Source: a virus (taxonomy: Duplodnaviria > Heunggongvirae > Uroviricota > Caudoviricetes). Taken from it: a stretch of 9,015 bases of DNA. The stretch spans positions 1-9,015 of IMG/VR virus record IMGVR_UViG_2563366903_000010. One strand, written 5' to 3'. The position numbers were made by a program, and so were the translations under genes. Below, in pieces: positions 831-8,835 of this stretch; the stretch's first letter is position 1, and each line of letters opens with the position of its first letter. Below the pieces are notes generated by a model, which had not been told where the DNA came from, did no database searches, and saw nothing but the letters and a program-made list of their open reading frames with translations.

Positions 831-3800
831 TCACGATGCGGTATCAAAATCGTCTGTATAGGATTTCAGGTAAAACAGAACCGGGTCCGGGATCCGAATT
901 TGACTCGTATCATGAAGTATTGAACCACCCCTGTAAAAAAGCACACCTGCTTCATACCTGAATGTAATTTCAACCCGCGCATCACCCTGTCCGGCAGGAA
1001 TACCCCATGAGCCTGACGCACTTCCGCCAACATCAGAATATACCGGCTCATATCTGCTGGCGTTTTTGGAAATCTGGACCTCCCGCTCCCCGGTTTTGAC
1101 TTTGCCTGACCTGGCATGAACGACAACTTTGTCATTTATCTTCATGATGAATTCACCTCTGGAAAATGAATACGCCATAAGCATAAGCTTGCGATCAAAC
1201 GGCATGTTGTCTTTCAGCAAAATCATTTTCTGAAAAGTCAGCTGGTTCTGAGTCATTACGCCCTGCCCCATATCAACCGTGTATCCCTTGACGATATCAC
1301 CAATGATTCGGTCAGCGCTCATCGTTCCATTAATGGTGCAGTCTTCCGCAATCGTCACGTTATTCAGTACCCCGGCACTGGCCGTTATCGTCCCGCTGAT
1401 ATCGGCATTACGGGCCGTCAGCCTGCCGTCCGGCGTCAGGGAGAATGCCGGGGGATTGCCGCCACTGGTAATGGTGGGGGCGGTGAGCGTCTTTATCAGC
1501 GCCTCATTGATAAAGGTCTGTCCACCCTGCGTAACCAGAGCCGGTGTGGTGTTACCATTTTCCGGGTTAATGAATGCCACGCGGTCCGCTGCCAGCAGTA
1601 TCTGGCTCTGCACCCCTTCATCCGTATTCTCAATGCCTGCACCAATACCGGCAATATAAAGGCGTCCGTCCTGCATCTGCTGTAGCTTCACCGCCCACAT
1701 GCTGTTCAGGTCATTATTTGTGTCCGTCTGCACACGCTGGATTTGCTGTATGGTGGCGTTCTGGTCCTCCAGCGTTTTACTGACCGTCTGCGTGATTTCA
1801 TTGCGGGTTTCTGTGATGGTGGTCTGCATTTCCGCCATCTCGTCCTTCAGCTGACTGTTGTCAATCTCTGCCCACAGCGCCTCTGCCAGATGCGTTTTTC
1901 CTATCTTTTCCCGGAAAAGTTCCAGATAGCCCGCAGCATCATTGCTCGCCCGTCCACTGGCTTCCACAAAAGCAGATTTACCCACCAGGTTGACGCTGCG
2001 CACATAAAACCAGAAATCCTTTCCGGGCTTAATGTGCGGACCGGAGACACTCCACTGACTGCCGGTCCCCAGATAACGGGCAGAGGTTTCCACCTGTGCG
2101 GCGTCTGCAATTTTTGCCTCCGAAAACCAGAACTCAAACTGCACCGTCGGGTCATAAATGGTCAGTTTCGGGACTGCCGTTATCTGAAAATACCCCGGCG
2201 TCAGTTCAACACCGGCAGGCGCTGCCGGTGCGTTAATCCGGAACGTGGTGGTGGCGGGTTCGCCCTGCTGGCCATAGCTGTTAATCGCCCTGACCGTCAG
2301 GGTGTATTCCCCGAGAGGCAGGCCACTGAAACGGTGCTCCGTACCGGCAGTGATGGCGGTGGTCAGCAGGCGGCTGTTCTCACCGCTTCCACTGGTCAGG
2401 CGCAGACTGAAGCGCACGCCCTTCACCACCCTCGGCGTGTCCCATTTCGCCAGCGCCAGATACTGACTGTCAGCTGCGCTCACCTCCACCGTCAGGTGCT
2501 GCACTGCCGGTGGGATAACGCTGTTCAGGGTGCCTGACTGCGGCTCAAAGCGGGCCCCGTTATCCACGATGGCTTCTTTTTCCGGTACGTGCTGCACCGC
2601 CGTAACGGCAAAGGTGCCGTCCGTGTTTTCCCGGATGGCCACACAGCGGAACAGGCGACGGCGAAGACCGGGCATTTTCAGTCCCCATACCCCGTATGTC
2701 TCCACGCCATCCGGCAGGGGGCTGACCTGTATCCGGTCAGGCGCAGGGTGTGCGGTAATGTCCACACTCACCGGCTTACCGCTGCCGTTAATCAGGTTCA
2801 CCGTCGATGTCCCCGTCTCCGGGAGTGTCACCTCACGGTCCAGCGTCAGGGTACGGCTGGCGGCATCGATGGCCAGAATGCGTCCGCCGGTCAGGGTCCC
2901 GGCGTAGTCGTTATCACAGATTTCAATGATGTCACCCGGCGTGTGACGCAGCCCCTGTGACCCGAGCGTGAAATCCACCGTCTGTGTTTCCAGCAGTTCC
3001 GTCTTTATCACCCACAGCCCGGCACGGTGAGCCTGACCGCGACTGGTGCAGCCGAACGCGTCCATCTTCAGCAGGTTGCGTCCGTAGCGCAGTATGGCTT
3101 CCGGGTCTTCCACCAGTTCCGTGGAGGTCTGCCAGCCGTTCTGCGGGTCGGTGTAATTCACCTCCACCGCCGTGTGCCGGTCCTTCAGGGCACTGAAGCT
3201 GTAGCGGAACCCCACGCCGTTATCATCCACCACCACATCGCTGTTGGTGTACGGCCACACCACATCCGACGGGCGGTCCTGAACGAACGTCAGCGTCTGG
3301 CCGTTCCATACCGGCATACAGCGCATCGCCGAGCAGAAATCACTGAGCACGTCCCATGCCTTACGCTGTTGTGCCAGGTACGCATTAAAGGTCATCCGCG
3401 GCTCTGTGCCCCCGAAACCATCCGGGACCGTCTGGTCGCAGTACTGCCCGATGGCATACAGCGCCCACTTGTCCACATCCGCCGCCCCCAGACGTTTTCC
3501 CATGCCGTAGCGCGGGTGAGTCAGCATGTCCCACAGGCACCAGGCCGGGTTGTTGCTGTATGCCGGTTTCAGACTGCCGTCCCAGATACCACTGTACGTG
3601 CGTTTTTCCGGGTCATAGTTTGACGGCACCTGGATGATGCGACCGCGGATATGGTAGTTCACCGTCATCTGCTGGCCGCCGAACTGCTCCGCATCCACCT
3701 GCAGCCCCACAATGGCCGTGTTCGGGTAGCACTGTTTCACATCGATGATTTCGGTGTATGACGACCAGAGCGTCTTATTCTGCAGCTGGTCCGTGGTGCT

Positions 3801-4361
3801 GTCCGCCGTCTCCCTGACCATCCGGATGTTAAAGGGGCGGGGAGGCAGATTATCCAGAATCACCGACGCAAGGAACTGTGAGGTGGTCTTGCCGTTAATG
3901 GTGACATCCTTTTCCGTCACCCAGTTACCGTTACGCTGTAACTGAATCAGCAGACGGACAGAGGACGGATTACGGTCACCCTTTGACGTGGTCTCCACCA
4001 GTGACTGCACCCCGAAGGTCACCCGCAGGCGGTCAATGTTCGCTGACGTAATGGTGCGTGTCACCGGTTTTGCCCTGGTCACTTCCACACCCAGTACAGT
4101 TTCAGAGCCGGAGGACTCAAAGCCTTCCGGTGGTGTCTGCTCCTGCTCCCCGGCGCGCCAGACCGCGGTCACACCGTGTATCACGGGATTACCGTCCGTG
4201 TCCGTCAGCGGGGTTTTGTTCACCAGAATACTCTGCAGGCCTTTCACCGGACCTTCAATGGGTCCCTCACCAATCGCATCAATCACGCTCATCATCTGCG
4301 TGGATTTGAGGTTGTCTTTCGCCTCACGCGGTGTGTGCGCCCTGCCGCCACCTTTGCCCAT
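831..4361 (-). CDS. J: Tail tip central fibre / host specificity protein J (1176 aa)
   Basis: ORF-track protein starts MGKGGGRAHTPREAKDNLKSTQMMSVIDAIGEGPIEGP, near-identical in pattern to the remembered lambda J N-terminus (MGKGSSKGHTPREAKDNLKST...), and tracks lambda J through most of its length (e.g. NPPAFSLTPDGRLTARNADISG, NVTIAEDCTINGT). Only the last ~150 aa differ. RBS AAGAGGTGA upstream of the ATG. Confidence 0.95.
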   Translation of the reverse strand: MGKGGGRAHTPREAKDNLKSTQMMSVIDAIGEGPIEGPVKGLQSILVNKTPLTDTDGNPVIHGVTAVWRAGEQEQTPPEGFESSGSETVLGVEVTRAKPVTRTITSANIDRLRVTFGVQSLVETTSKGDRNPSSVRLLIQLQRNGNWVTEKDVTINGKTTSQFLASVILDNLPPRPFNIRMVRETADSTTDQLQNKTLWSSYTEIIDVKQCYPNTAIVGLQVDAEQFGGQQMTVNYHIRGRIIQVPSNYDPEKRTYSGIWDGSLKPAYSNNPAWCLWDMLTHPRYGMGKRLGAADVDKWALYAIGQYCDQTVPDGFGGTEPRMTFNAYLAQQRKAWDVLSDFCSAMRCMPVWNGQTLTFVQDRPSDVVWPYTNSDVVVDDNGVGFRYSFSALKDRHTAVEVNYTDPQNGWQTSTELVEDPEAILRYGRNLLKMDAFGCTSRGQAHRAGLWVIKTELLETQTVDFTLGSQGLRHTPGDIIEICDNDYAGTLTGGRILAIDAASRTLTLDREVTLPETGTSTVNLINGSGKPVSVDITAHPAPDRIQVSPLPDGVETYGVWGLKMPGLRRRLFRCVAIRENTDGTFAVTAVQHVPEKEAIVDNGARFEPQSGTLNSVIPPAVQHLTVEVSAADSQYLALAKWDTPRVVKGVRFSLRLTSGSGENSRLLTTAITAGTEHRFSGLPLGEYTLTVRAINSYGQQGEPATTTFRINAPAAPAGVELTPGYFQITAVPKLTIYDPTVQFEFWFSEAKIADAAQVETSARYLGTGSQWSVSGPHIKPGKDFWFYVRSVNLVGKSAFVEASGRASNDAAGYLELFREKIGKTHLAEALWAEIDNSQLKDEMAEMQTTITETRNEITQTVSKTLEDQNATIQQIQRVQTDTNNDLNSMWAVKLQQMQDGRLYIAGIGAGIENTDEGVQSQILLAADRVAFINPENGNTTPALVTQGGQTFINEALIKTLTAPTITSGGNPPAFSLTPDGRLTARNADISGTITASAGVLNNVTIAEDCTINGTMSADRIIGDIVKGYTVDMGQGVMTQNQLTFQKMILLKDNMPFDRKLMLMAYSFSRGEFIMKINDKVVVHARSGKVKTGEREVQISKNASRYEPVYSDVGGSASGSWGIPAGQGDARVEITFRYEAGVLFYRGGSILHDTSQIRIPDPVLFYLKSYTDDFDTAS

Positions 4362-4601: not shown

Positions 4602-5282
4602 TTATCCCTGTCGACCAATAACCACCACCTTTCCGCCCCCGCCTTCATCACGGGTGCTGATGTCCTGAGAGATACGTCGTGAACCAACCAGCATTTCCCC
4701 GTAAGGCACCGGCATCGGGTTGCCCTGGGCAATCATGTTATCCAGTGACGAAAAATACGTGTTCTGTCTGCCGTTATCCGTTGCGCGGTAATCCGGTGTT
4801 TTTGCCTTCGGGGCCAGCATCTGGGCCACACCACCCAGAATCATGCTGGCTCCAAGTGAAAACAGCATCGTGGTGGCAGAAAAACCACCGGCTGCCAGGG
4901 CTGAACCCCATAACGCCATCGTGGCTCCGGCAGTGAAGAAAGAGCCCACGATGGCCGCCGCCCCCAGCACAATCTGCAGTCCGCCCTTTCCGGCACCGGC
5001 CAGTCGCGGCACAATATGGATGACCGTTCCCTCACCCAGTGGTTCGTGAAGGCGGGCATACACCGCCTCCGGTGCCGTGTCATCACCGGCAATACGTATC
5101 TGGTACCAGCCTTCGTTCATCTGACGGCGAAAGCCCGGCACCTGCAGCGACAGGGCACGGATGGCTTCCGCCGCCGTGTTCACATACAGGCTGAAGCGGC
5201 GGCCAAATCGTTGTAAATCCCCGTGAAGGCAGATGTGTGCCAGTGGCGGTGACGCCAGACAGAATGCGTTCGTCGTTGCCAT
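4602..5282 (-). CDS. I: Tail tip assembly protein I (226 aa)
   Basis: N-terminus MATTNAFCLASPPLAHICLHGDLQRFGRR matches the remembered lambda I (MAATHTLPLASPGMARICLYGDLQRFGRR); Gly/Ala-rich hydrophobic middle and C-terminal QNTYFSSLDNM..QGN...PV.YGEM.VGSR as in lambda I. Confidence 0.9.
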   Translation of the reverse strand: MATTNAFCLASPPLAHICLHGDLQRFGRRFSLYVNTAAEAIRALSLQVPGFRRQMNEGWYQIRIAGDDTAPEAVYARLHEPLGEGTVIHIVPRLAGAGKGGLQIVLGAAAIVGSFFTAGATMALWGSALAAGGFSATTMLFSLGASMILGGVAQMLAPKAKTPDYRATDNGRQNTYFSSLDNMIAQGNPMPVPYGEMLVGSRRISQDISTRDEGGGGKVVVIGRQG

Positions 5283-5917
5283 TTTTCGGAATACCTCTCC
5301 CGTTTACTCAGTTGTTCAGGCAGATGGTGAAGCAGTTCACCGTTGCCGCAGTAAATGGCGGCATGATTAGCCACCGATGCGCCGAAGCAGCACAGCAGGA
5401 TATCGCCCGGCAGTGCAGAGGACAGGGGCACCCGGTAAAAGCCCGTTGCCTCCATATTGTCCAGGTAAAGGTTCTGACCGTTGCACCACCAGTCATCCTC
5501 ACGGTGAAAATCCGGCATATCAATGCCTGCCAGATGGTATGCATCCCGGAACAGCGTGTAACAGTCCGTCACCCCGTGCGCAAAGCGCCGTCCGGTCAGG
5601 TGCGGAACGCAGCGGAATTTGTGAATGTCACCCCGGCAGACCAGCCACCAGGGCAGGGCACTTTTTATCTGCAGTCGCCGGTCTGCCTCACTCAGCCAGG
5701 GCAGACCACCGGGATGACTGTGGACCAGCGCCACAATCTCACCCTGCATCTCCGCCCGCAGCCAGTCTTCCGGGGCAATACGAAAATACGCCTCCGGCGC
5801 TGCGGAGATATTCACACAGGGCAGGTACCGCTCGCCCTCCGTCGTGGTTATCACGAAGCCGCACGACTCCGCAGGCGCACACCGCCGGGCATGCGCCAAT
5901 ATATTGCTATAGAGCAT
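5180..5917 (-). CDS. K: Tail tip assembly protein K (245 aa), JAMM/MPN-type and NlpC/P60-like motifs
   Basis: Contains HSHPGGLPWLSEAD, an exact HxHx7Sx2D JAMM motif, and a downstream Cys/His segment (DCYTLFRDAYH ... HH) as in lambda K-family proteins. Strong RBS AGGAG 6 nt before the ATG at 5917. 3' end overlaps the I start by 103 nt in another frame. Confidence 0.85.
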   Translation of the reverse strand: MLYSNILAHARRCAPAESCGFVITTTEGERYLPCVNISAAPEAYFRIAPEDWLRAEMQGEIVALVHSHPGGLPWLSEADRRLQIKSALPWWLVCRGDIHKFRCVPHLTGRRFAHGVTDCYTLFRDAYHLAGIDMPDFHREDDWWCNGQNLYLDNMEATGFYRVPLSSALPGDILLCCFGASVANHAAIYCGNGELLHHLPEQLSKRERYSEKWQRRTHSVWRHRHWHTSAFTGIYNDLAAASACM

Positions 5918-5930
5918 GAGAACTCCTGAT

Positions 5931-5958
5931 AAAAAACCCAGCCGAAGCTGGGTTTGTT
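5931..5958 (-). terminator. Rho-independent terminator (usable in both directions; strongest for the minus strand) ending the antirepressor-like gene, 14 nt upstream of the K start
   Basis: AAAAAA (5931-5936), stem CCCAGC (5937-5942), loop CGAA, stem GCTGGG (5947-5952), then TTTGTT. Minus-strand RNA reads hairpin + UUUUUU. Confidence 0.7.
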
Positions 5959-5971
5959 AAGTTGTCAATTG

Positions 5972-6886
5972 TCAGTAGCGATGCAGTGAAGGCGGCAACT
6001 CTTTGTTCTTAAGCCTTTCCCATGCCAGAAGGTTCGTCGGCCCGTCAGGCTCATAAATATCTATATCCCGCGTGTGATTAATTAAAACGCCCCTCGCCCT
6101 CCCGATGGTATACGAGAACTCATAGCCGTAGTCGTGGCATATGCCGGAATAGCCAGACTGAATCAGTTTTAATGCGGGATACAACTCACGGAACAATGCC
6201 TGTGAGCGGTTAGCATAATCCCATAGCCATACAAGGCTGTTTGCTTCTTTTGCGGAAAGCTCGTTGGTGCTCTTCTCTTGTTTGCCGATTAACTCTCCTT
6301 CAAGCGGAACGCGAGCAGCAAGTGACAGAGCTTCGGTAAACTGCTCCTCGCTGATTTCTTTGTACGAACATCCAAAATGTGATTTCAGTGACGACCACAT
6401 GGTGATCATCGCCTTCGCCTGTTTTTCCTTTGGCAGAGACTGACCGCGACTCATGACGAGTTGTTTAATGGCTTCCTGCTGTTCAGTAGTGATTTTCCCC
6501 GGCAACGCCTTTTTAGCTTTCAGTGTATTTCCGTAAGACCCCGTTTTACGAATGGATGGCAAAACTTCAGCTGTCACCCATTTGCGGAATTTGTGCGGGA
6601 CTGAACCTTTATTGACGGCATCGCGGCAACGCAGAACCAATGTATACATACCTGATTCGCTCACAATGCTTAAATTCTGCTCACCACCAAGGGTGTAACT
6701 TAAAGTTACTCCCTTTTCATCGTCATCAAGTGCAGTAAGCGCCTTGCGTGAGTTAGTCAGATTTAAAGCATCACAAACATCTTTTGCTACAAACCACGGC
6801 TCACCGCACTTGTTGATGACGCGGATTTCACTGTCGCCGAATTTGAAGATGGTGAAATCGTTTTGTGCCTTTGCTATACTTTTCAT
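5972..6886 (-). CDS. Bro-N domain phage antirepressor-like protein (304 aa), Ant-like by position downstream of the Arc-like gene
   Basis: N-terminal region [76 protein letters not shown] matches the Bro-N pattern; the C-terminal ~150 aa are unassigned. RBS AGGAAA 7 nt upstream of the ATG. Same size class as P22 Ant (~300 aa). Confidence 0.8.
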
Positions 6887-6918
6887 GTCAATATTTCCTA
6901 ATCCGATTTGTTGATACC

Positions 6919-6950
6919 GAAGCCCTGACTGTTACAGCAGTTGGGGCTTC
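6919..6950 (-). other. Intercistronic stem-loop overlapping the Arc-like stop codon, between the Arc-like and antirepressor-like genes
   Basis: GAAGCCC (6919-6925) / GGGCTTC (6944-6950) with an 18-nt loop. On the plus strand it is followed by AACTTTTTAG; on the minus-strand mRNA there is no U tract, so it is not a canonical terminator there. Confidence 0.3.
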
Positions 6951-7089
6951 AACTTTTTAGGCTGCGAATAAGACGCTGCACTATTTCTGAATTTAAAGAC
7001 CTGCCCTCCTCCTTAGCCTTTTCCTTCAATTTTTCTTTAATCTCTGGCGGGATACGAATCCCTAATGGAGCGATATCTCTAACTTTCAT
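6949..7089 (-). CDS. arc: Arc-like ribbon-helix-helix transcriptional repressor (46 aa from ATG 7089)
   Basis: MKVRDIAPLGIRIPPEIKEKLKEKAKEEGRSLNSEIVQRLIRSLKS; the GRS(L/V)NSEI core and overall layout match remembered P22 Arc (…EENGRSVNSEIYQRVMESFK…). The listed 87-aa ORF starts at a TTG and would cover the promoter region, so the internal ATG is preferred. Confidence 0.7.
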   Translation of the reverse strand: MKVRDIAPLGIRIPPEIKEKLKEKAKEEGRSLNSEIVQRLIRSLKS

Positions 7090-7121
7090 TTCTTTCCCAA
7101 TTGCTACACCGTGATAACTAA

Positions 7122-7149
7122 ATACTACACCGTGCTTATTTAAAGTCAA
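7122..7149 (-). promoter_or_regulatory. Sigma70-like promoter for the Arc-like/antirepressor-like operon
   Basis: On the minus strand: -35 TTGACT (7149..7144), 16-bp spacer, -10 TAGTAT (7127..7122); predicted start near 7115. The -10 overlaps repeat copy 2. Confidence 0.5.
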
Positions 7150-7167
7150 AGTTTTTTTGCCTACACT
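7139..7167 (+). promoter_or_regulatory. Possible promoter for the Mnt-like operon (weak match)
   Basis: -35 TTTAAA (7139-7144), 17-bp spacer, -10 TACACT (7162-7167), overlapping the 13-bp palindrome; placed back-to-back with the minus-strand -35. Confidence 0.3.
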
Positions 7168-7199
7168 GTGTAGCAATGCTACAGCGTGCAGGAGGAAAA

Positions 7200-7448
7200 A
7201 TGAAAGGTGCAAGAGATATCAGTCCCTTGGGAATTAGGATTCCAGACTATTTAAAGAAACGCATTCAGCAGGAAGCGGATAAAAACGGCAGATCAATGAA
7301 CTCAGAGATTGTGCTTATCCTTCAAAAACATGTTGATAATCTTGATGGCCCTCGCTCACTTGAAGGATTCGCTAACCAAGAAGCTGACAAATTCAAAGAG
7401 GCGCTGCTTGAGACGCTAAAGACCATGTATGGTAAGGATGAAAAATAA
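7200..7448 (+). CDS. mnt: Mnt-like ribbon-helix-helix repressor (82 aa from ATG 7200)
   Basis: MKGARDISPLGIRIPDYLKKRIQQEADKNGRSMNSEIVLILQ...FANQEADKFKEALLETLKTMYGKDEK. Same length as P22 Mnt (82 aa), with matching ARD, NGRSMNSE and C-terminal ...TLK..Y.K blocks. GGAGG 4 nt before the ATG at 7200; the listed 90-aa ORF starts 8 codons earlier with no RBS. Confidence 0.8.
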   Translation: MKGARDISPLGIRIPDYLKKRIQQEADKNGRSMNSEIVLILQKHVDNLDGPRSLEGFANQEADKFKEALLETLKTMYGKDEK

Positions 7449-7984
7449 TGCTGCACACAATTCATTTCTTATGCCCCGTTAACACTGCCACTGTTGGGCA
7501 ACTTCAGAACCACTGTCTCACCGCATTATCTCAAGGCGCAACTGAATTAAATATCCATATATCAAGTCAGGGAGGGGAAACTGCCGCTGGCTTTACTGCG
7601 TATAACTTTCTTAAGTCACTCCCTGTTACCGTTAGAACTCACAACATAAGCAATGTTGAATCCATAGCTAATATCGTTTTCCTGGCTGGCTCAGAACGTT
7701 TCGCAAACCCATTATCAAGATTCCTGTTACATCCTCTATTATGGGTCTTTGCCACCCCAGCCGCCGACCATGCCAGATTGAGAGAGTACGGGAAATGCCT
7801 CGATAACGATCTTGATCGCTTCGTTGAGACGTTCAATATCGACATCGGAACCCATATTAGGTGGGCATCCCTGATAGCAGACTCGACCATTTTGGATGCT
7901 AACAAGGCTCTTGAGCATGGCATAATTAATTCCATAAAAACTGCAAGGCTGGTATCCAATCAGGCAAACTGGTGGGTTGTTTGA
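7448..7984 (+). CDS. ClpP-fold (S14-like) putative Ser-His-Asp serine protease, 178 aa, lacking the ClpP N-terminal segment
   Basis: By-eye alignment to E. coli ClpP: LNIHISSQGGETAAG vs IYLYINSPGGVITAG; NVESIANIVFLAG vs GQAASMGAFLLTAG (Ser retained); LLHP vs MIHQP (His retained); LIADS vs TERDRF (Asp retained); EHGIINSI vs EYGLVDSI. The start ATG overlaps the Mnt-like stop (TAATG) with AAGGA upstream, indicating translational coupling. Confidence 0.75.
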   Translation: MLHTIHFLCPVNTATVGQLQNHCLTALSQGATELNIHISSQGGETAAGFTAYNFLKSLPVTVRTHNISNVESIANIVFLAGSERFANPLSRFLLHPLLWVFATPAADHARLREYGKCLDNDLDRFVETFNIDIGTHIRWASLIADSTILDANKALEHGIINSIKTARLVSNQANWWVV

Positions 7985-8009
7985 TGGGTAAATCATGATT
8001 GCTCCTTAT

Positions 8010-8031
8010 AAAAAAACCACCTGACGGTGGG
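8010..8031 (-). terminator. Intrinsic terminator-like hairpin immediately downstream of L (minus orientation)
   Basis: A7 run (8010-8016), stem CCACC (8017-8021), loop TGAC, stem GGTGG (8026-8030); minus-strand RNA reads hairpin + UUUUUUU. On the plus strand there is no U tract after it. Confidence 0.5.
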
Positions 8032-8040
8032 CATAATCCA

Positions 8041-8739
8041 TTACTGCGAAAGTTTATTAATGGAAAGGAAACCGCCAAAATTGCCGACATTCCTGCGCAG
8101 TTCACACCCGCGCATGCACTTGCTGCATCTGTCCTTACGGATATCGGTGGTGGGTTTATCGAACTCATCCGCCACAGCCCCGCCCGTGTAACCACACTCA
8201 TCAGAGCGGTAAGTCCACATACAGGTATTCGCCAGCATAATGCGACCGGGAAACAGCGCCCCGTCCGTCTCGGTCGGTGTGGCCAGCACAAACGAGGCCG
8301 TCATGGCTGTGAGCTGCGACATCTGCTCCACCACCCAGCGGTCCGTCAGCTCCTGCTCCGGGTCAGCCTCCGGATTGCCTGCCACAAAATTCACCGCATC
8401 CAGAAAACGCGCATACACCCGGCGACGAACCACCGTGGCCCCCACCAGGCTCTGCAAATCCTCCGCCATCCCGGTGACCAGCCCGAACAGATTCGACACC
8501 GTCAGTGACGGGCGGGCACTGCTCCCTTTCCCGTTCATCTCAAAGCCGCTGCCGTCAATCGGGTATGCCTGGTACTTCCGCCCCTGCCAGGTGACCGGCT
8601 CCCCTTTTTCATTCAGCTCATTACAGAAAAAATACCGCTCACCGCCCTGTACCGTCAGGTCGATTTCCCAGAGTACCACCCGCGGTGACTGCTCTGATTT
8701 AATCGACTCATTCAGGCTTTCTTCGTTGATCTCCTGCAT
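8041..8739 (-). CDS. L: Tail tip protein L (232 aa from ATG 8739)
   Basis: MQEINEESLNE...VVLWEIDLT..GGERYFFCNE.NEKGEPVTWQGR.YQ.YPI.GSGFE.NGKG...FLSINKLSQ matches remembered lambda L along its full length, including the C-terminus. The listed 250-aa ORF adds 18 N-terminal codons that run through a terminator hairpin and are rejected. Confidence 0.9.
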   Translation of the reverse strand: MQEINEESLNESIKSEQSPRVVLWEIDLTVQGGERYFFCNELNEKGEPVTWQGRKYQAYPIDGSGFEMNGKGSSARPSLTVSNLFGLVTGMAEDLQSLVGATVVRRRVYARFLDAVNFVAGNPEADPEQELTDRWVVEQMSQLTAMTASFVLATPTETDGALFPGRIMLANTCMWTYRSDECGYTGGAVADEFDKPTTDIRKDRCSKCMRGCELRRNVGNFGGFLSINKLSQ

Positions 8740-8752
8740 AAACATCCACCCA

Positions 8753-8777
8753 TAAAAAAAGGGGCGCAATGCGCCCC
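8753..8777 (-). terminator. Rho-independent terminator (minus orientation) ending about 14 nt upstream of the L start codon
   Basis: Stem GGGGCGC (8761-8767), loop AAT, stem GCGCCCC (8771-8777), with an A7 run at 8754-8760 on the plus strand, i.e. hairpin + UUUUUUU on the minus-strand RNA. Confidence 0.65.
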
Positions 8778-8835
8778 TGATAAAATAGTTCAATTAAAAA
8801 ATCAAAAACGATGAAGGTAATAAAATGAAAATTAA

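Follow-up and report, generated by a model that had tools for sequence, protein, structure and literature searches.

The closest solved relative of the protein considered here is ClpP1 of Pseudomonas plecoglossicida (PpClpP1), published in 2026, which lacks more than 15 N-terminal residues, carries a ‘triad’ of Ser73-His96-Pro and assembles as a homotetradecamer with an axial pore of 42.7 Å (PMC12900304). Its Ser and His are essential and its third residue is dispensable (changing Pro to Ala or Asp retains ~60% of activity), its peptidase efficiency is 13-fold below that of the canonical paralogue, and it does not bind ClpX; together with canonical ClpP, it forms a stable heterotetradecamer that outperforms either homomer, both alone and with ClpX (PMC12900304). 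A conceptual parallel is offered by ClpP2 of Pseudomonas aeruginosa, ClpP1 of Listeria and ClpP1P2 of Mycobacterium, where a weak second isoform pairs with the main one and tunes Clp assembly or output (PMC13056064, PMC12900304); P. aeruginosa ClpP2, for instance, modulates ClpXP assembly (PMC13056064). Here we describe a phage-borne gene for a short ClpP-family protein (the ‘ClpP-like gene’) found in the first 9,015 nucleotides of a tailed-phage (Caudoviricetes) record, IMG/VR IMGVR_UViG_2563366903_000010, this whole stretch being referred to below as the window. By its layout the gene is the predicted second cistron of an mnt operon, within an immI cassette that has been transplanted into a lambda-type tail operon. 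We tentatively propose that it serves in lysogenic conversion, as a ‘moron’ gene, and that its product is a short, ATPase-independent ClpP paralogue which may remodel host Clp proteolysis in the lysogen.

The second point of reference is the immI region of phage P22, whose Mnt is a repressor made in the lysogen. This region consists of ant, sar, arc, a divergent control region and mnt, followed by cargo on the same strand as mnt, and in the P22 genome the order is mnt, ORF59a and sieA, all on one strand. The window shares this organization, with two differences: its cargo is a predicted cytoplasmic protease subunit with no similarity to the SieA exclusion protein, and its cassette lies between the lambda-type tail genes K and L rather than by the tailspike gene.

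A short ClpP-family gene overlapping mnt

An initial annotation of the window, made from the sequence without database searches, had proposed a 178-residue ClpP-like reading frame, and this frame proves to be real. It matches the Pfam CLP_protease family (PF00574) with E 1.6e-11 and 44.9 bits against a gathering score of 20.2, residues 24-165 aligning with positions 37-180 of the 182-position profile. An AF2 model built from 40 homologues is confident (pLDDT 92.7, pTM 0.89) and has the ClpP alpha/beta fold with its handle helix; Foldseek matches it to the ClpP proteins of Escherichia coli, Staphylococcus aureus and Listeria with TM scores of 0.82-0.84 (~0.83 for E. coli ClpP). The gene is joined to the one before it by a one-base overlap, which is read directly from the sequence and agrees with the initial annotation: the TAA stop of mnt (7446-7448) and the ATG start of the ClpP-like gene (7448-7450) together form TAATG, and an AAGGA motif lies 9 nt 5′ of that start. 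The upstream partner, then called an Mnt-like ribbon-helix-helix (RHH) gene amid tail genes, indeed encodes a full-length Mnt homologue, and the tail genes that flank the cassette are K and L.

Several features set the ClpP-like protein apart from housekeeping ClpP. In alignment it starts at approximately residue 26 of mature E. coli ClpP, and the N-terminal axial segment, its loops and the gate are therefore absent; Tyr60 and Tyr62 of the E. coli docking pocket are replaced by Asn35 and His37; and the housekeeping ClpP equivalogs are missed by a wide margin (18.5 bits against a cut-off of 308.6 for NCBIfam TIGR00493, 30.5 against 249 for PRK00277). The protein is thus predicted not to be a ClpX/ClpA-docking housekeeping ClpP, in line with the earlier suggestion that, lacking the axial segment, it was an unlikely partner of ClpX or ClpA.

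The gene is intact and under purifying selection. Of the near-identical copies in IMG/VR, 42 of 44 are intact, one being frameshifted and one interrupted. The codon variants seen across 18 alleles comprise 11 synonymous and 10 nonsynonymous changes, in ~124 and 410 sites, respectively, for a crude pN/pS of ~0.28, with no change at Ser72 or His95, the residues considered below.

A family of truncated ClpPs with a Ser-His pair

By sequence, the nearest solved structure is that of PpClpP1 (PDB 9UXT; E 2.3e-35, residues 3-175 against 4-179), the second-best solved relative reaching only E 2e-7. By structure the result is the same, with a TM score of 0.94 and a root mean square deviation of 1.6 Å between the AF2 model and 9UXT, and a TM score of 0.83 for the second-best match (Listeria ClpP1/2, 4ryf). 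The two proteins are 38-40% identical and homologous over their full length; they share the N-terminal truncation, the catalytic Ser and His (Ser73/His96 in PpClpP1, Ser72/His95 here), the absence of an Asp at the third position and the absence of ClpX-docking features. They differ at that third position, which is Pro in PpClpP1 and Ser146 in the phage protein. A profile search of 1.84 billion representative sequences returned ~230 clusters (at 50% identity) with E <= 1e-30, mostly of 180-200 residues and with a common start point. On this basis, the ClpP-like protein is a member of a distinct, N-terminally truncated ClpP family with a Ser-His pair and no conserved third acid. The resemblance to P. 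aeruginosa ClpP2, Listeria ClpP1 and Mycobacterium ClpP1P2 is of a more general, ClpP-level kind (E ~1e-5 to 1e-7); these isoforms differ in being chromosomal, in having kept their N-terminal segments and in having mostly Asp or Asn as the third residue.

The initial annotation had held that the Ser, His and Asp of the catalytic triad were all apparently retained. For the first two this stands: Ser72 and His95 correspond to Ser97 and His122 of E. coli ClpP (whose numbering proved internally consistent on checking), and both are invariant in 40 of 40 close homologues and in 153 of 153 representatives of the wider family. For the Asp it does not. E. coli Asp171 aligns with Ser146 and not with Asp145, the latter being aligned with E. 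coli Arg170 in a column that varies freely, and Asp145 was accordingly rejected as the triad acid. In column 146 itself, the phage clade has Ser, Ala or Thr, the Pseudomonas proteins have Pro and the betaproteobacterial ones Ala or Glu, with Gly or Ala predominating across the family. With Ser at the Asp171 position and Asp145 unconserved, the protein is a predicted Ser-His protease without the canonical third acid.

Whether PpClpP1 might itself be prophage-borne was considered and rejected, as its Pseudomonas orthologues lie in ordinary chromosomal neighbourhoods outside phages, as do the Massilia and Telluria members. The Pseudomonas orthologues examined (four loci) are conserved and have genes for KGG-repeat stress proteins and a DUF6555 gene on either side, a setting that may point to a function of the chromosomal branch in stress or stationary phase. 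The phage gene differs in being cargo that is presumably co-transcribed with mnt.

A complete P22-type immI cassette inserted in a lambda-type tail operon

The ClpP-like gene closes a block (window 5972-7984) that is a complete P22-type immI cassette plus one cargo gene, with the coordinates and domain matches given in Table 1. Direct comparison with P22 places homologues of Mnt, Arc and Ant in the P22 arrangement, and the presence of a full-length sar antisense RNA, opposite the ant start and ribosome-binding region, is what identifies the ant-arc-mnt block as a complete immI. On the plus strand, sar has a promoter-like site inside the ant 5′-end, at 6852-6880, together with a terminator hairpin at 6919-6950. 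The Mnt-like protein is 33% identical to P22 Mnt across 93% of its length and is thus a full-length homologue; a tblastn search with it recovered the annotated mnt genes of phages P22, L, epsilon34 and CUS-3, and the window's mnt has a Shine-Dalgarno sequence, AGGAGG, at 7188-7193. The best PHROG matches of the Mnt-like and Arc-like proteins (phrog_2685 and phrog_795) are named ‘partition protein ATPase’, a label that several phage records also give to mnt and that looks like a propagated misannotation.

Between arc and mnt, the control region holds four copies of a CTACACCGTG-like 10-mer (at 7104, 7125, 7161 and 7179), one of which is enclosed by the palindrome CTACAC-T-GTGTAG at 7161-7173; these repeats are candidate Mnt/Arc operators. 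A Pant-like promoter on the minus strand (TTGACT-16-TAGTAT, 7149 to 7122) is a match to consensus only, and the count of promoter-like sites in the control region is not above shuffled expectation.

The layout seen here, where a second cistron overlaps the small RHH gene before it, is also usual for type II toxin–antitoxin pairs; the RHH protein would then be the antitoxin and the protease the toxin. We regard such a pair as very improbable here: the RHH protein is a full-length Mnt orthologue within a complete immI, and the protease occurs in many prophages and chromosomes without an RHH partner. It is because of these solitary homologues that we set the toxin–antitoxin interpretation aside.

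The surroundings of the cassette are of another type altogether. By the open reading frame list and Pfam matches, a lambda-type tail module fills the minus strand of the window, and the G+C content of the cassette is 41-48% compared with 56-63% in the flanks (tail genes K and L). The immI and ClpP-like cassette is an insertion into a lambda-type tail operon, and since P22-like podovirus prophages carry the same cassette, it has moved between phage types. Escherichia phages PhiR12_1, PhiR12_4 and PhiR12_5, as well as E. coli NCTC9112, match positions 6900-8040 of the window with 100% identity. The GC-rich hairpin that separates the convergent 3′-ends of the ClpP-like gene and L could be a bidirectional terminator serving both transcripts. 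If it does act as a terminator, late tail transcription would need to read through it. At the other end of the window (1 to ~640, minus strand), a reading frame that extends past the window edge encodes the N-terminal portion of a tail fibre marked by long runs of collagen-like Gly-X-Y repeats.

Table 1. Annotated features of the window, in order of position on the 9,015-nucleotide stretch.
Feature	Coordinates	Strand	Basis or remarks
Host-specificity protein J	831-4361	-	Tail module
Tail gene I		-	Lambda-type tail module, listed between J and K
Tail gene K	5180-5917	-	JAB and NlpC/P60 domains (Pfam)
Low-GC inserted cassette (immI and ClpP-like cargo)	5950-8040		Between K and L, 2.1 kb
ant (antirepressor, 304 aa)	5972-6886	-	Pfam P22_AR_C 4.5e-26, Bro-N 2.5e-20; PHROG 245 anti-repressor Ant 1.5e-104
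sar antisense RNA	6888-6954	+	Rfam RF00262, 69.4 bits vs gathering score 43, E 8.7e-14, full length 1-68
arc-type repressor gene (46 aa)	6949-7089	-	Pfam Arc E 2.7e-12; annotated in PhiR12_1 and RefSeq
Divergent control region, 110 bp	7090-7199		Between arc and mnt
mnt-type ribbon-helix-helix repressor gene (82 aa)	7200-7448	+	Pfam Arc domain E 7.4e-8
Short ClpP-family gene (178 aa)	7448-7984	+	Open reading frame; Pfam PF00574
GC-rich hairpin	8017-8030		T-run on minus strand; between convergent 3′-ends of ClpP-like gene and L
Tail gene L	8041-8793 (as an ORF)	-	Phage_tail_L, E 2.6e-92 (Pfam)

Genomic contexts of the homologues

We surveyed the contexts of homologues at 80 IMG/VR loci, together with genome loci, encoding contigs and annotated phage records. 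Copies with at least 79% identity make up 45 of the 80 IMG/VR loci, and all of these have an Mnt gene upstream on the same strand, with arc and ant divergent. From the end of the Mnt gene to the ClpP-like start is 3-18 nt in 44 of 44 loci with intact context, the 45th being interrupted. In nine of the 45 the site is the one seen in the window, between lambda-type K and L, and ~35 lie in P22-like prophages between mnt and the ejection gene 16, adjoining the tailspike gene, a site which is the true P22 immI position and which in P22 is occupied by ORF59a and sieA. Homologues occupy the same interval between immI and gene 16 in Pectobacterium (79% identity, with the mnt overlap retained) and in Providencia (65% identity, with a 30-nt gap after mnt). 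Among 5426 complete E. coli genomes, 128 carry the gene, which in nearly all cases overlaps an ‘Arc family’ gene.

Most of the E. coli carriers have only the last 81 nt of mnt (7367-7447) in common with the window; the mosaic joint therefore falls within mnt, such that the 3′-end of mnt travels with the cargo. Conversely, the same mnt allele is followed by different cargo in two other E. coli strains (loci L076 and L077): in strain W4 by another overlapping gene, for a product of 69 aa, with a Panacea-domain gene nearby, and in strain ISHS7 by other small genes. The position after mnt is thus a variable cargo slot, and in other phages the interval from mnt to gene 16 is occupied by SieA or by a gene for either a YafO-type toxin or a Panacea-domain protein. 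We also considered the cargo beside mnt in CUS-3, Klebsiella phage ST899-OXA48phi17.1 and others as possible ClpP relatives; none is, these genes having either no Pfam match or a match to the YafO toxin.

The initial annotation had drawn an analogy to the P22 slot beside mnt that holds sieA. This holds as to position, given that the ClpP-like gene directly follows mnt in P22-like prophages of E. coli, Pectobacterium and Providencia, and fails as to simple substitution: two IMG/VR loci (L092 and L097) carry both genes, the SieA-like one (28% identity to the P22 protein) following the ClpP-like one in the same orientation after ~1.4-1.6 kb, and this co-occurrence argues that the ClpP-like gene is no simple replacement of sieA.

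Away from this clade the association dissolves. Copies with 52-73% identity make up the remaining 35 of the 80 IMG/VR loci and also include those of Klebsiella, Leclercia and a 186-residue E. coli variant, and none of these has mnt, arc or ant nearby. In at least 19 of them the gene is situated between the lysis and terminase genes, separated from Rz by 74-210 bp and oriented against it. This is the position of the lambda bor gene, which is expressed in the lysogen and directly follows Rz/Rz1 in opposite orientation, ahead of the terminase genes; the likeness to such bor-type morons is one of position and presumed expression only, the proteins being unrelated. In Pantoea and Chromobacterium, the copies are antisense within tail modules, again with no ant, arc or mnt nearby. 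An obligatory Mnt linkage across the family was accordingly rejected, the linkage being limited to the clade of at least 65% identity, and no conserved phage-encoded partner was found next to the ClpP-like gene across the contexts surveyed.

These contexts also bear on whether the protein is a dedicated immI regulator that degrades Ant (or Arc/Mnt) and so adds a second safety lock on the antirepressor, an idea that takes up the proteolytic control of the antirepressor suggested in the initial annotation. The gene is presumably co-transcribed with Mnt, which keeps ant off, and ant lies 560-1200 bp from it in all Mnt-linked loci. The idea is nonetheless disfavoured, and we would call it distinctly improbable, since ClpP-like alleles do not co-vary with Ant (alleles that are 98-100% identical accompany Ant proteins 49-100% identical to that of the window, with different N-terminal domains), since ant, arc and mnt are absent near all 35 IMG/VR homologues of <=73% identity as well as those of Klebsiella, Leclercia, Pantoea and Chromobacterium, and since the wider family is chromosomal in Pseudomonas and Massilia.

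In every phage context surveyed, the ClpP-like gene is antisense to the late genes, and across the 80 IMG/VR loci and every genome locus examined its site is never the head module on the late strand. The linkage survey that the initial annotation had called for, of Mnt/Arc genes against head genes, thus gives Mnt linkage within the closer clade, none in the distant homologues, and head linkage nowhere. This matters for the possibility, left standing in that annotation, that the gene is a misplaced or spare prohead (head-maturation) protease. Phage prohead proteases share the ClpP/S14 fold and a Ser-His catalytic core with the ClpP-like protein, whose best PHROG matches are head maturation proteases (phrog_94, E 1.6e-20), and the record of phage phiv205-1 annotates the gene as ‘head maturation protease’. 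Against this, the protein scores 49.7 bits with the NCBIfam head-maturation model NF045542, which has a cut-off of 120; it is not fused to a scaffold or capsid protein and lacks a C-terminal extension; and the gene is never found by portal, scaffold or capsid genes on their strand. Moreover, PhiR12_1 already has a lambda C/Nu3 protease-scaffold gene, and most carriers are P22-like, with procapsids that mature without proteolysis. By family score, position, strand and the presence of the phage's own C/Nu3 gene, a prohead role is effectively excluded and hardly credible.

What remains is an accessory gene of the moron type, a character seen in its low G+C content, its orientation antisense to late genes and its solitary occurrence near Rz/lysozyme genes in distant homologues. 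In this respect, the earlier preference for an accessory over a head-module gene is borne out.

Possible roles in the lysogen

How might such a gene act? In the dormant prophage it would be transcribed together with mnt from the mnt promoter, by analogy with P22, and its translation may be coupled to that of mnt. The protein would be expected, from the behaviour of PpClpP1, to form heptameric rings that are themselves unable to dock ClpX or ClpA. With rings of the host's single housekeeping ClpP, these may form hybrid tetradecamers with a changed peptidase output, as the examples of PpClpP1 and P. aeruginosa ClpP2 suggest. Such hybrids would retune the ClpXP/ClpAP-dependent turnover of regulators in the lysogen, with prophage stability, induction timing and resistance to other phages as candidate selective benefits.

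Three points weigh against this proposal. The control region has no convincing sigma-70 consensus for Pmnt, the promoter from which the operon would be read. The ring-ring sensor residues (the Arg170/Asp171 region of E. coli ClpP) are unconserved, which could argue against pairing with host rings. Finally, PpClpP1 is only 38-40% identical and its orthologues are chromosomal, and the biology of the phage protein may thus differ.

Two alternatives share the ClpP fold and dispense with a productive host partnership. In the first, the protein is an autonomous, open-pore peptidase: its own ungated homotetradecamer would degrade unfolded polypeptides and peptides without an ATPase, possible targets being injected or early proteins of a superinfecting phage, with exclusion or defence as the outcome. 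By itself PpClpP1 does assemble into a homotetradecamer whose pore is dilated and whose peptidase activity, dependent on Ser and His, is measurable, yet as a homomer it is enzymatically weak (PMC12900304). The cargo island from immI to gene 16, which has SieA in P22 and YafO-type toxin and Panacea-domain genes in relatives, would suit such a function, as would the solitary occurrence of the gene in many prophages. On the other hand, an ungated cytoplasmic protease might be toxic, and the gene is nonetheless constitutively linked to mnt; and a search of PADLOC-DB 2.0 gave no match at E <= 0.1 for the ClpP-like protein, nor for the Mnt, Arc and Ant proteins. On balance, we consider an autonomous peptidase unlikely.

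In the second, the phage subunit is a dominant-negative or decoy that mixes with host ClpP and cuts ClpXP/ClpAP output, stabilizing phage or host proteins. The loss of the third triad residue, the N-terminal loops and the ClpX-docking tyrosines would all fit a decoy, and a hybrid 7+7 particle would have a single docking face. The strict conservation of Ser72 and His95 in all 153 family representatives, however, indicates that catalysis has apparently been selected, and the sole experimental precedent is one of stimulation, not inhibition (PMC12900304). A decoy therefore seems improbable.

Returning to the proposed remodelling of host Clp proteolysis, a more specific form of it is possible but doubtful, namely that a phage ClpP subunit made from a maintenance-repressor operon enters the host Clp machinery as a hybrid tetradecamer and thereby either locks lysogeny or destroys the proteins of incoming phages. 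If true, this would be a phage takeover of a core host protease by subunit substitution, rather than by an inhibitor or an adaptor.

Relation to described systems and significance

Part of what is reported here was already known: the family has been known by structure since 2026, and databases label the protein, loosely, as a Clp protease subunit. In the full-text literature that we searched, no paper describes a prophage-encoded ClpP paralogue in association with mnt or immI; the P22 SieA paper makes no mention of such a paralogue, a transposon-sequencing (Tn-seq) paper on Pectobacteriaceae deals with host ClpP only, and the papers on PpClpP1 and P. aeruginosa ClpP2 alone proved relevant. Three things were not found described in this literature: a branch of the family that is carried by phages, the constant location of its gene behind mnt as the second cistron of the operon in an immI cassette that is mobile, and the lack of a third catalytic residue throughout the family.

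For the family, these results place PpClpP1 within a Ser-His group of ~230 clusters (at 50% identity) in which no third residue is conserved and of which one branch has been captured by phages. Carriers include prophages of E. coli, Klebsiella, Pectobacterium, Providencia, Proteus and Pantoea, and in these genomes the routine labels ‘ATP-dependent Clp protease proteolytic subunit’ and ‘head maturation protease’ are both misleading. How long many regulators, antitoxins and phage proteins persist depends on ClpXP and ClpAP, and phages are known to act on host proteases by means of inhibitors and adaptors. An alternative proteolytic subunit supplied by the prophage itself would, if the proposed role is correct, be a different route to host proteolysis.

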